A stretch of 64,000 nt of DNA. Origin: a virus (Duplodnaviria > Caudoviricetes). Shown piece after piece: positions 40,471 through 63,351 of the stretch; the stretch's first letter is position 1, and every line of letters begins with the position of its first letter. Where the stretch lies: IMG/VR virus record IMGVR_UViG_3300042866_001263. One strand, 5' to 3'. Under the pieces are notes generated by a model. The model had not been told where the DNA came from, did no database searches, and saw nothing but the letters and a program-made list of their open reading frames with translations. A program made the translations under genes and the position numbers.

Positions 40471-40902
40471 ATGCAATTATTACTCAATGAAGTGCTACAA
40501 AAAGTAAGCAACGCAAAAACAAAACCCGAAAAAGTTAAACTTCTTCAGGAATATAATACCCCAGCACTCAGACAAATTCTGATTGCTAATTTTGATGAGA
40601 GTATTGTATCCATGCTGCCCGAAGGCGAACCTCCATACACCCCCAACGAGGCGCCAGAGGAGACGGAACACACCCGTCTAGTGCATGAGTACCGTAAACT
40701 CTATCTCTTCTTCAAGGGCGGCGCAAACATCTCACAGAGCCGTCGTGAAACTCTTTTTGTTCAACTGCTTGAGGGTTTACAGAAAGGTGAAGCTGAAGTT
40801 CTATGTCTCATGAAAGACAAGAAGATTGGTAAGCGTTGGAAGATCACCAAGCAGTGTGTAGAAGAAGCTTTCCCACAAATTCAGTGGGGGAATAGAAGTT
40901 GA
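40471..40902 (+). CDS. Conserved T4-like protein (DUF6433-like)
   Basis: LPEGEPPY..RKLYLFFKGG..FVQLLEGL..EAFPQI. Confidence 0.65.
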   Translation: MQLLLNEVLQKVSNAKTKPEKVKLLQEYNTPALRQILIANFDESIVSMLPEGEPPYTPNEAPEETEHTRLVHEYRKLYLFFKGGANISQSRRETLFVQLLEGLQKGEAEVLCLMKDKKIGKRWKITKQCVEEAFPQIQWGNRS

Positions 40903-41150
40903 ATATTAAAATCATTCATCAAAATTGTGATCCAACTTTGGCAGAGGATGTAACTTTGCCATACACTGCATACATTGTAAAATATTATGTTGATGAACAA
41001 TATAATTACGATATCGTAATCTGTAATAAGAAAATAGATATCTTTGATTATTATTGGGATAAGTATAGAGAAGGACTTATTGAATTTAAACAAACACAAG
41101 GAAGAGTAAATCCTAAATTGTGGTCTCCAAGTAACAACAAGAAAAAATGA
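40899..41150 (+). CDS. Conserved hypothetical protein
   Basis: Coupled ORF, GRVNPKLW. Confidence 0.6.
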   Translation: MNIKIIHQNCDPTLAEDVTLPYTAYIVKYYVDEQYNYDIVICNKKIDIFDYYWDKYREGLIEFKQTQGRVNPKLWSPSNNKKK

Positions 41151-41413
41151 ACTCAGATCCACACGGCAATTGGTGCGTTTACTATTGTAAAAAAACTGAC
41201 ACTACTGCATGGAGCGTAATGAAATTACGACGTAGTGATGGTGTCATCGTATCAGCAAAAACTTATAATGATGCTTTTAAATTTGTCAAATATCAAGATG
41301 CATTTGATTTTGTTAGACAACTAATTACAGAAGAACCAGAACCAAAATATGATGCAACTGTAAAGAGAATTTGTCTTGCCAGAGAAGATGCTTTTTATCT
41401 TTCAGAAAATTAA
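41147..41413 (+). CDS. Hypothetical protein
   Basis: Coupled ORF. Confidence 0.55.
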   Translation: MNSDPHGNWCVYYCKKTDTTAWSVMKLRRSDGVIVSAKTYNDAFKFVKYQDAFDFVRQLITEEPEPKYDATVKRICLAREDAFYLSEN

Positions 41414-41415
41414 AC

Positions 41416-41447
41416 TGTATTCAAATTTACAAAGTTTGTATTATAAT
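41416..41447 (+). promoter_or_regulatory. NtcA consensus site over the -35 region of a TATAAT promoter
   Basis: TGTA-TTCAAATT-TACA (41416-41431); -10 TATAAT at 41442-41447. Confidence 0.6.
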
Positions 41448-41455
41448 TAGATATA

Positions 41456-41506
41456 CGTTCATTCGCTATTTCCAAATAGCGAACGGAAGTAAGACAACTC
41501 GGAACG
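41456..41506 (+). ncRNA. Glutamine riboswitch aptamer 1 (glnA-type)
   Basis: P1 CGTTC/GAACG, P2 TTCGCTATT/AATAGCGAA, conserved GGAAGTAAG. Confidence 0.85.
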
Positions 41507-41509
41507 GGT

Positions 41510-41678
41510 CGTTCATCTATGGAGACACTCATTCTCACATGCTTACAAGCACACTTGATTGCTGGGAGAGTTAATAAACAAGACATTCCCAGGCAAGCAA
41601 AGAATGATTTGATATGGGAGATCAAACAGATATCTCCAAAGGAGTGTAAGATAGACGCAAAGGTTGACTGAAGGAACG
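41510..41678 (+). ncRNA. Glutamine riboswitch aptamer 2 with a 130-nt P2 loop
   Basis: CGTTCA-TCTAT..ATAGA-CGCAAAGGTTGACTGAAG-GAACG. Confidence 0.7.
41519..41671 (+). CDS. 50-aa ORF nested inside aptamer 2, not in track
   Basis: METLILTCLQAHLIAGRVNKQDIPRQAKNDLIWEIKQISPKECKIDAKVD*. Confidence 0.6.
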   Translation: METLILTCLQAHLIAGRVNKQDIPRQAKNDLIWEIKQISPKECKIDAKVD

Positions 41679-41711
41679 CTCTTTAACCTAAACAACTAAG
41701 GAGAACCTCCC

Positions 41712-41861
41712 ATGTCACAAGCAACATATCGTGGTGTTCAATATGACACCGAAACAAAAAGAGAACAACTAGCAGCAAACTGGCTTCCAGTTATCCAAAA
41801 ACAAATTGAAAAACAGAATAAATTAAAAGAGGCACAACTTGCCATGGCGATGAAAATGTGA
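41712..41861 (+). CDS. DUF4278-like small protein downstream of the riboswitch, not in track
   Basis: MSQATYRGVQYDT.. (YRGVxY motif); SD AGGAG at 41699-41703. Confidence 0.75.
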   Translation: MSQATYRGVQYDTETKREQLAANWLPVIQKQIEKQNKLKEAQLAMAMKM

Positions 41862-41891
41862 TATAATATATTTCCGTGTGAAGGAAGTGAT

Positions 41892-41915
41892 GGGGAGGCG
41901 AAAGTCTCCCCTTTT
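41892..41915 (+). terminator. Intrinsic terminator
   Basis: GGGGAGGC-GAAA-GTCTCCCC followed by T4. Confidence 0.8.
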
Positions 41916-41928
41916 ATTTTGATAAAAA

Positions 41929-42474
41929 ATGAATTTTATACATCATCTAAAAGAAGCCTATCCAAAATCATCTTGCGAAAAGATGATAGAAATATTTGAC
42001 CAGAACAGTCCTTTCGCTGTAAGAGGAACTGCTGGAAAAGAATACCTTGATGACTTAGAATTAACTTTAGAAATTACAGATGCAGATTGCTATTCTGGAC
42101 TGGGAACAGCAGTTTATAAAGCAGTTGATGAATATAAAATTGTGTATCCATTAATCAATACTCACATCTCAAACTGGAAAGTAAATCCATATTGTCAGCT
42201 GATGAGATATGAACCTAACAATTATTATAGTAGGATACATTGTGAGAATGATGGAACCCCAGAATTCTCGACAAGAGTTTTTGCTTGGATGATCTATTTG
42301 AATGACATCCGAGAGGGAGGAGGAACACATTTCGTTTATCAAAATTTTACAGCACAACCAGTAGCAGGAGATCTTTATATTTGGCCTGCTCACTGGACGC
42401 ACTTTCATCATGGAGTTAATGCTCCATATGAAAAAAAGTATATTATAACTGGTTGGGTTGATTATGTGTTATAA
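41929..42474 (+). CDS. 2OG-Fe(II) oxygenase
   Basis: IHCEND, WMIYLND..GGT, WPAHWTHFHHG, KYIITGW. Confidence 0.85.
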   Translation: MNFIHHLKEAYPKSSCEKMIEIFDQNSPFAVRGTAGKEYLDDLELTLEITDADCYSGLGTAVYKAVDEYKIVYPLINTHISNWKVNPYCQLMRYEPNNYYSRIHCENDGTPEFSTRVFAWMIYLNDIREGGGTHFVYQNFTAQPVAGDLYIWPAHWTHFHHGVNAPYEKKYIITGWVDYVL

Positions 42475-42497
42475 TTAGTAGTGTATGTCATGCTACC

Positions 42498-63163: not shown

Positions 63164-63351
63164 TATAAATATACACACAATGGTGAACATCATGTCTAAC
63201 TTCAGCAAGCAAATTGAGATTAAGATTAGCGATTGCCGCCAGGATATCGCCAAATCCCTCCTGCTTGCTAATATGTAACAATCGATACATAAGCAAGATT
63301 TATCAGGGGGGCAGTTGACAAAACCGCCCCCCTATTTTATTGTAGATACAT

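Follow-up and report, generated by a model that had tools for sequence, protein, structure and literature searches.

A glutamine-aptamer cassette of freshwater cyanophages with a conserved NtcA-type box at its head

The cassette and its genomic setting

The DNA analysed here, a stretch of 64,000 nt that we call the window, belongs to a T4-like cyanomyovirus from lake water and carries gnd, glutaredoxin, DUF6433, thyX and phoH genes, a wcaG RNA and many tRNAs. The sequencing runs that contain this DNA are DNA metagenomes of lakes or freshwater, the single RNA run listed containing next to none of it, and picocyanobacteria are the likely host group. Between a phrog_6087 gene upstream and a gene for a 2OG-Fe(II) oxygenase downstream lies a compact unit made up of a palindrome of the NtcA type, a promoter, a glutamine-aptamer leader that encloses a small ORF, a second small ORF and an intrinsic terminator (Table 1). 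The ORFs neighbouring this cassette all lie on the same strand, and the terminator scan detected no further terminator on the plus strand between 40800 and 41892, so that same-strand genes upstream are unshielded and read-through into the cassette is possible.

Table 1 Features of the cassette and its surroundings (positions are those of the window)
Feature	Position	Strand	Basis or remark
NtcA-type palindrome TGTA-N8-TACA	41416..41431	.	Direct reading, pattern match, matrix score, conservation
Sigma-70-type core promoter (predicted)	41420..41447	+	Promoter scan, 10/12 matches
Predicted transcription start	41454..41455	+	Placed from the -10, 7-8 nt past TATAAT
Alternative weak -10 TACGTT (TAN3T)	41454..41459	+	23 nt after box TAC
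Glutamine aptamer A	41454..41510	+	Rfam RF01739, full model, 34.4 bits, E 1.6e-5
Aptamer B, or 3' half of a composite aptamer	41510..41679	+	CGUUCAUCUAU at 41510-41520, AUAGACGCAAAGGUUGACUGAAGGAACGC at 41651-41679; encloses the 50-codon ORF
Nested 50-codon ORF (ORF50)	41519..41671	+	ORF list, conserved homologues
49-aa YRG peptide	41712..41861	+	Weakly DUF4278-like; SD AAGGAG at 41698-41703
Intrinsic terminator, cassette end	41892..41911	+	Terminator scan; 8-bp stem, 6 GC pairs, T tract
2OG-Fe(II) oxygenase gene	41929-42474		Adjoins the cassette

A pattern scan of IMG/VR for the cassette returned at least 119 stretches, and for comparison the fetched loci were anchored on the distal aptamer half and identical upstream regions were dropped. 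Among named isolates, blastn finds the cassette in the Synechococcus phages DSL-LC03, DSL-LC02, S-SRM01 and S-CREM1. Its surroundings differ: in DSL-LC03 and DSL-LC02 it follows a small hypothetical ORF downstream of ribonucleotide reductase genes, and at two other loci (L133 and L190) box and cassette stand directly behind tRNA genes. The box thus travels with the cassette through differing genomic contexts, and the best explanation is that the cassette is a mobile small-ORF unit of cyanophages, of which the window site is the regulatory head.

The leader opens with aptamer A, in which P1 is formed by CGUUC (41456-41460) with GAACG (41503-41507), P2 occupies 41462-41483, and the core letters CGUUCA, ACGGAAGUA and GGAACG are all present. 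Its score lies 0.6 bits short of the RF01739 gathering score of 35, and it is therefore absent from a scan at the gathering threshold; on the same model the aptamers of relatives range from 28.9 to 45.3 bits, that of DSL-LC02 reaching 35.6, and 10 of 20 loci clear the gathering score, at 35.4-45.3 bits. P2 pairs 1-4 form in 99-100% of 67 distinct A-type sequences, and pairs 2-4 appear as two to five standard pair types, which constitutes covariation. A previous interpretation of this DNA (hereafter the sequence-only reading) had put a glutamine aptamer at the predicted transcript start, where it is indeed real and conserved, and had let it end at 41506; that end does not hold, as the RNA reads as a tandem or composite aptamer reaching approximately 41679.

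This extension comes from alignment of the window with S-CREM1, whose second aptamer is compact, as it also is in about 16 metagenomic relatives. Directly behind aptamer A, CGUUCAUCUAU supplies a second P1/P2 5' strand, and its partner AUAGACGCAAAGGUUGACUGAAGGAACGC follows some 140 nt downstream. The short form of aptamer B has a covarying P2, and in one compact relative (L116) the best Rfam alignment joins the 5' core of A to the B 3' element GAAGGAACGC across a 46-nt insert, making one aptamer that scores 45.3 bits; the composite fold in compact relatives scores far above aptamer A of the window. Moreover, aptamer A is without the J3/1 GAAG junction, which only the distal 3' half supplies (41670-41679), and B is without GGAAGUA, a division which suggests that the ligand-binding fold may be a composite of A and B. 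Thermodynamic folding of 41455-41715 gives a z-score of -3.3 and recovers P2 of A but not the aptamer junctions, and is consequently no help in choosing between a tandem and a composite form. In other phages aptamer A itself encloses an ORF. A type 2 aptamer (Downstream-peptide, RF01704) ahead of the 49-aa ORF was rejected, as the search gave no match there at E values up to 10.

The nested 50-codon ORF has its AUG inside the P2 strand and its UGA inside the aptamer core. A tblastn search with its 50 residues finds 244 relatives in viral contigs, their alignment displays an in-frame indel and conservative changes, and there is a weak match to phrog_504. The 49-aa ORF matches phrog_545 and phrog_5049, and scores 14.4 bits (E 0.05) against Pfam DUF4278 (PF14105) over residues 3-15 only, below the gathering score of 25.3; three of its relatives reach 20.3-23.3 bits (E 8e-5 to 7e-4), likewise below the cut-off. 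Its N-terminus MSQATYRGVxYDT recurs in the homologues of the four isolates, and "DUF4278-like" here denotes an apparent resemblance through the N-terminal YRGVxYDT, as distinct from membership of the family. Its 22 close relatives include none with a functional name, those with any name being called "hypothetical protein", and none recognised as a host homologue. In the cyanobacterial inhibitor IF17, DUF4278 is the N-terminal part and is dispensable for inhibition of glutamine synthetase (PMC6316151), so that no inhibitor role is implied for the 49-aa peptide.

Promoter geometry and the sign of nitrogen control

The predicted core promoter combines a weak -35 element, TTCAAA (41420-41425), with the -10 element TATAAT (41442-41447) over a 16-nt spacer; the window as a whole holds 14 consensus sigma-70 promoters against 2.4 expected. 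TTCAAA sits within the N8 spacer of the box, 10 nt (aagtttgtat) separate TACA from TATAAT, and another 8 nt separate TATAAT from the CGTTCA of the aptamer at 41456. Two claims of the sequence-only reading, that a perfect TGTA-N8-TACA ends 10 nt before TATAAT and that it covers the -35 region, are thereby confirmed. The four closest relatives (L124, L178, L065 and L191) all retain TATAAT, three of them within an extended -10, TGnTATAAT. The dinucleotide TA stands directly before CGTTCA in 25/31 sequences of the class to which the window belongs (class S, defined below), in 22/67 of class L1 and in 0/15 of class L2, which is compatible with a start at the A preceding CGTTCA. The start predicted in Table 1 is supported by this conservation, by the extended -10 in relatives and by the position of the resulting 5' end, 1-2 nt before P1.

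With this start the box centre falls at -30.5/-31.5, a position that is plausibly repressor-like. For activation, the standard spacing between an NtcA box and a TAN3T element is 20-24 nt, and in the interval 19-24 nt past the box the sole TAN3T is TACGTT, at 23 nt; a start directed by it would lie at approximately 41465-41466, inside aptamer A, and would move the box centre to about -41.5. The claim that the spacing is that of a repressor and not the approximately 22-nt one of an activator is consequently favoured in its first half by the predicted box centre and weakened in its second by TACGTT, and the sequence is compatible with either sign of regulation. According to ChIP-seq and RNA-seq, activated genes have their NtcA sites at -41 to -44 (-41.5), and the sites of repressed Synechocystis genes vary in position and gather to some degree around -30 (PMC5714215); in Anabaena gifA the repressive site lies at -28.5 (PMC6316151). 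On the minus strand there is no TAN3T 19-24 nt from the palindrome, and antisense or divergent use of the palindrome was rejected on that ground.

The distance from the box TAC to the first aptamer (CGTTCA) divides the relatives into three classes. In class S, which includes the window, DSL-LC02 and S-CREM1, it is 24-25 nt in 28/31 sequences; in L1, the largest class (66 sequences, among them DSL-LC03), 44-49 nt; and in L2 (15 sequences), 56-57 nt. L1 and L2 together make up 81/113 relatives, with the box 44-57 nt before the aptamer, and the interval so created commonly holds a consensus promoter, TTGACT-17/18-TATAAT, that the box leaves uncovered (a match of at least 5/6 to TTGACA was counted 38 times, TATAAT 60 times). 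The first AT-rich -10-like element follows the box at 11-13 nt in 74/98 sequences of classes S and L1, and in L2 at 21 nt (TATATA, 13/15), which is within the activator range. On these distances, the box apparently cannot mean the same in all classes unless the upstream AT-rich promoter is the one controlled. The further claim that the locus is expressed only when nitrogen is replete cannot hold across the family, given the uncovered promoter of L1 and L2 and the 21-nt spacing in L2. Most class-S relatives have TATATA as their -10, in ambiguous register, and some of these elements resemble a T4 late promoter (ATAAATA), a promoter type to which repression by occlusion of the -35 would not apply and which those phages may have. 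T4-type late promoters (TATAAATA) number 2 in the window, against 4.6 expected, and were rejected for this locus, where none matches.

The reading of the window to which we give about an even chance of being right is that host NtcA with bound 2-oxoglutarate (2-OG) represses the TATAAT promoter through the box, and that the glutamine-sensing leader sets translation of the small ORFs, in analogy to host gifA/gifB and PMM1846. The transcript of the TATAAT promoter would begin 1-2 nt ahead of the riboswitch leader. In a nitrogen-limited infected cell, 2-oxoglutarate-loaded host NtcA on the box would block RNA polymerase, and under sufficient nitrogen the promoter would be free and glutamine, on binding the leader RNA, would determine how far the small ORFs are translated, the outputs being the ORF50 product and the 49-aa peptide that resembles DUF4278. 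Start site, direction of both controls and peptide function are the elements that we infer.

An unlikely alternative takes the site as an activator, or promoter switch: NtcA centred near -41.5 would drive the TACGTT promoter from a start at about 41465, the transcript would lack the 5' strand of P1, and nitrogen limitation would yield a riboswitch-less RNA with the TATAAT promoter shut. The 23 nt from TAC to TACGTT fall in the 20-24 nt range and the resulting centre agrees with -41.5 (PMC5714215); the fixed distance in class S, its preference for TA before CGTTCA over L1 and L2, and the 21 nt between box and TATATA in L2 point the same way, and NtcA-activated phage promoters have been proposed by Sullivan et al. 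(PMC3037559). However, TACGTT agrees with TATAAT at only 3/6 positions, the aptamer fixes four of its bases, the TA is explained equally well as the -1/+1 start dinucleotide of the TATAAT promoter, L1 departs from the spacing although it is the largest class, and a start within the aptamer would discard a strongly conserved RNA element.

There is a comparably small chance that the site is real and repressive, yet of little effect, with read-through from early genes upstream, or in relatives the second consensus promoter, dominating transcription and the riboswitch acting as the sole effective nitrogen sensor. The unterminated stretch from 40800 to 41892 with its co-directional ORFs, the TTGACT-17/18-TATAAT promoter that many L1 and L2 relatives carry downstream of the box, and the finding of Klahn et al. 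that at gifB the contribution of the riboswitch equals or exceeds that of the promoter (PMC6212724) are all consistent with this. The strong conservation of the box nevertheless argues for selection, and a bound NtcA dimer could itself be a roadblock to polymerase reading through.

Lower again in our estimation, and decidedly improbable, is that one box serves two overlapping promoters about 11 bp, or roughly one helical turn, apart, with NtcA switching between a message with and a message without the riboswitch. Without NtcA, the TATAAT promoter would give a leader with a complete glutamine aptamer; with NtcA and 2-OG, TATAAT would be blocked, transcription would start inside the aptamer from TACGTT, and loss of the P1 5' strand would abolish glutamine sensing. 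Were this true, host nitrogen status would decide whether the message carries a riboswitch at all, and the box distances found among the phages (24-25, 44-49 and 56-57 nt) would reflect re-setting of the switch in evolution. With their three discrete distances from box to aptamer, the cassettes, more than 100 in number, offer a natural series of promoter variants for reporter work.

Identity and conservation of the NtcA-type box

The palindrome is a perfect 16-nt match to the NtcA consensus GTA-N8-TAC in its extended form TGTA-N8-TACA, with TGTA at 41416-41419, the spacer ttcaaatt, TACA at 41428-41431 and the core at 41417-41430. CRP-type sites read TGTGA-N6-TCACA and NtcA-type sites TGTA-N8-TACA; the arms of the box are of the latter type. 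Within the window, counts are suggestive only as evidence against chance: GTA-N8-TAC is observed 20 times against 11.3 expected and the extended form 5 times against 1.5, and in each case 2/100 shuffles reach the count. A weight matrix built from the boxes of 112 other phages gives the site 18.4 bits, the top score of the 64 kb, although 2/20 shuffled windows hold a similar score; it is the only strong matrix site in the window, from which it follows that the box is specific to the cassette and does not serve this phage as a promoter motif in general. Another GTA-N8-TAC (42483-42496), flanked by a TATAAT on one side and by the ATG of the following small ORF on the other, was rejected as an activator site, its motif being broken (GTC) in relative L065.

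Comparison among phages is more telling. An exact GTA-N8-TAC occurs in the 130 nt that precede the first aptamer in 113/119 distinct cassettes among the fetched loci (approximately 95%), whereas the rate elsewhere in the same loci, 2.3e-4 per nt, predicts 0.027 per zone. The arms are fixed across relatives, and the spacer and the AT-rich flanks are variable (consensus AATTGTATCAAATGTTACAAAA). Shared ancestry of the cassettes accounts for part of the arm conservation. A sequence-specific operator of the NtcA type upstream of the aptamer is well supported by these comparisons, and that NtcA is the protein which binds it is what we infer from the form of the arms.

We see only a slight chance that the palindrome is bound by another host protein of the CRP/FNR family or by a phage protein, or that it is an UP-like AT-rich element, the link with nitrogen being coincidental. 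The box of L1 and L2 would lie around -50 to -62 from the consensus promoter, where UP elements and class I activators are located, and its flanks are AT-rich. Against this, an arm G and C at exactly 8-nt spacing in 95% of cassettes indicate a sequence-specific dimer and not an AT tract, the arms are not of the CRP type, the box is not a general promoter motif of the phage, and it accompanies a glutamine riboswitch and a DUF4278 ORF, a class of gene for which NtcA motifs are known in hosts (PMC6212724). A chance match in AT-rich intergenic DNA, for which the similar scores in shuffled windows and the 4 other TGTA-N8-TACA copies at unrelated places might speak, is highly improbable in the face of a motif that recurs at the same place in nearly all distinct cassettes, and recent common descent as the sole source of that recurrence is contradicted by the diverged spacers and flanks.

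Host counterparts and meaning for cyanophage biology

The closest known design is that of the cyanobacterial gif genes. NtcA represses gifA and gifB (PMC5714215, PMC6316151), and in gifB and PMM1846 an NtcA motif placed as for repression goes together with a glutamine riboswitch (PMC6212724, PMC6316151); what the sequence-only reading stated of this system agrees with the literature (PMC5714215, PMC6212724, PMC6316151). Like the phage locus, Synechocystis gifB, which encodes IF17, has an NtcA palindrome on its core promoter, an RF01739-type leader and a DUF4278 YRG ORF (PMC6212724, PMC5714215), and logic of the gifB type would lead one to expect, for the phage, transcription freed at low 2-OG and translation raised by glutamine. 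Unlike gifB, the cassette is viral, its 49-aa ORF appears to be without the IF7-like C-terminal part, which carries arginines that contact glutamine synthetase and inhibits the enzyme, and a 50-codon ORF lies within its tandem or composite aptamer. To call the locus gifB-like is plausible but overstated: NtcA motif, aptamer and DUF4278-type ORF do follow one another in the same order, and the term describes the regulation and not the function of the peptide.

PMM1846 of Prochlorococcus MED4 and the DUF4278 genes of picocyanobacteria share with the phage a short YRG/DUF4278 peptide, an NtcA motif in what is, for the phage, plausibly a repressor position, and a glutamine riboswitch. However, the aptamer of PMM1846 is of type 2 ("Downstream-peptide") and that of the phage of type 1, RF01739 (PMC6212724, PMC6316151), and the NtcA motif of PMM1846 lies over the start site, whereas the phage box lies over the -35 region. 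In its layout the phage locus is a viral instance of a known host regulatory design. An exact scan of 185,579 species genomes for a host copy of the tandem leader (ACGGAAGTA..GGAACG..CGTTCA), a procedure that diverged host copies would escape, gave 6 matches, none of them titled cyanobacteria. They comprise MAG contigs with the titles Acetobacteraceae, Omnitrophota, Bacteroidota and Acidimicrobiaceae, perhaps mis-binned phage DNA, and a single Streptomyces contig, perhaps a chance match.

Several components have been described before. Tandem glnA RNAs (Weinberg et al. 2010, PMC2864571) and glutamine riboswitches of T4-like cyanophages (PMC9964418, PMC9602691) are already known. The genome of S-CREM1 (Zhang et al. 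2023, PMC9964418) contains a homologous cassette in which a tandem aptamer of compact form precedes a 48-aa ORF homologous to the output ORF, and in alignment its upstream region also has GTATCACATTTTAC, 24 nt before the aptamer; unlike the window, it is without the nested 50-codon ORF. The paper on that phage gives the glnA RNA as an Rfam match alone, and mentions no NtcA box, DUF4278 link or promoter geometry (PMC9964418). Intergenic GTA-N8-TAC motifs, as in the window, were reported from T4-like cyanomyovirus genomes by Sullivan et al. (2010), who read them as phage use of the host 2-OG/NtcA signal (PMC3037559); in contrast to the site discussed here, theirs were read as activating promoters, without a link to a riboswitch, repressor geometry or an analysis of conservation across phages (PMC3037559). 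Searchable literature on cyanophages together with DUF4278 or glutamine synthetase inactivating factor does not describe the cassette, and holds no account of an NtcA box and a riboswitch together on a phage cassette, of conservation of the box or of its repressor-type geometry.

The cassette bears on the proposal that cyanophages exploit NtcA and 2-OG (Sullivan et al. 2010), which has so far stood on motif counts alone, and it offers a route to the function of the DUF4278/YRG peptides. If NtcA binds the box, freshwater cyanophages carry a complete two-signal circuit of their hosts, sensing 2-oxoglutarate through a protein and glutamine through RNA, and a phage that times the expression of its own small proteins in this way would be a concrete case of a virus reading the nutrient status of its host.

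Aptamer fold and expression platform

Four P1 strands are present in the window, two reading CGUUC and two GAACG, and all of them match. Because these strands are identical, they permit either two adjacent aptamers or a single composite (the 5' core of aptamer A joined to the 3' half of aptamer B) together with an internal GAACG-GGU-CGUUC hairpin; in compact relatives Rfam favours the composite, at 45.3 bits. Immediately 3' of the last P1 strand lies CUCUUU, which is complementary, with one G-U pair, to the Shine-Dalgarno (SD) sequence AAGGAG, and UCUUUAACC is kept in 4 of the 5 phages aligned. Judged from this complementarity, CUCUUU could be a candidate SD-sequestering element of the expression platform.

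Positions of features in the window and in related loci
Feature	Source	Position
Internal GAACG-GGU-CGUUC hairpin	window	41503-41514
Aptamer B, or 3' half of the composite	window	41510-41679
CUCUUU	window	41679-41684
Candidate SD-sequestering region	window	41679-41703
SD AAGGAG	window	41698-41703
TTGCCA-17-TATAAT promoter	window	41839-41911, with the cassette terminator
TATAAT before 53-aa ORF	window	42469-42474
Second GTA-N8-TAC	window	42483-42496
ATG of 53-aa ORF	window	42498
Third and fourth box-matrix matches	window	63271-63340, with the inverted repeat
TATAAT-loop hairpin	phage DSL-LC03 (L002)	~1470-1500
First aptamer with nested ORF	L136, L139, L107, L142, L090, L021, L097	L136: from ~400 to 150 nt before the 3' half of its aptamer B
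Tandem-aptamer pattern in MAG contigs	L204, L205/L208, L206, L209	

Promoters and NtcA-type boxes

In relatives with a TAC-to-aptamer distance of 44-49 nt (class L1) or 56-57 nt (L2), such as the loci L113, L109, L117 and L071, the TATAAT of a second promoter sits in a hairpin loop. The stems covary, with 24 distinct stem pairs that include G-U wobbles, and the 30 nt before the aptamer have a mean folding energy of -7.0 kcal/mol, versus -1.6 for shuffles. This hairpin, which is absent from the window, could stabilise the 5' end of transcripts that start at the upstream promoter, or could represent a structured promoter.

Elsewhere in the window, a second GTA-N8-TAC falls after a TATAAT and ahead of the ATG that opens a conserved 53-aa ORF, and would be downstream of the predicted start of that promoter. 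It is retained in close relatives but reads GTC in the related locus L065, and the evidence for it is consequently weak. Within the end of the 49-aa ORF there is a near-consensus TTGCCA-17-TATAAT promoter with TG; the cassette terminator follows ~25 nt further on, and the RNA made from this promoter would be very short. In the tRNA region, TGTAACAATCGATACA holds the matches ranked third and fourth on the box matrix, one on each strand, and is followed by the GC-rich inverted repeat ggggggcagttgacaaaaccgcccccc.

Nested ORFs and distribution of the tandem pattern

An ORF is also nested inside the first aptamer in 29-31 of the distinct related cassettes. The order of elements there is CGUUCAUCCUAUGAC, an ORF of ~70 codons, GUGCUAA and then AAUAGGACGGAAGUA. 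The predicted protein has the N-terminus MTKALLLLAWVPLL, resembling a signal peptide, and, as with the window's 50-codon ORF, the AUG lies within the P2 5' strand.

A pattern scan of genome contigs also recovered the tandem-aptamer pattern in contigs of lake MAGs. Their titles name Acetobacteraceae, Omnitrophota, Bacteroidota and Acidimicrobiaceae, but they may be cyanophage contigs mis-binned into the MAGs of heterotrophs.
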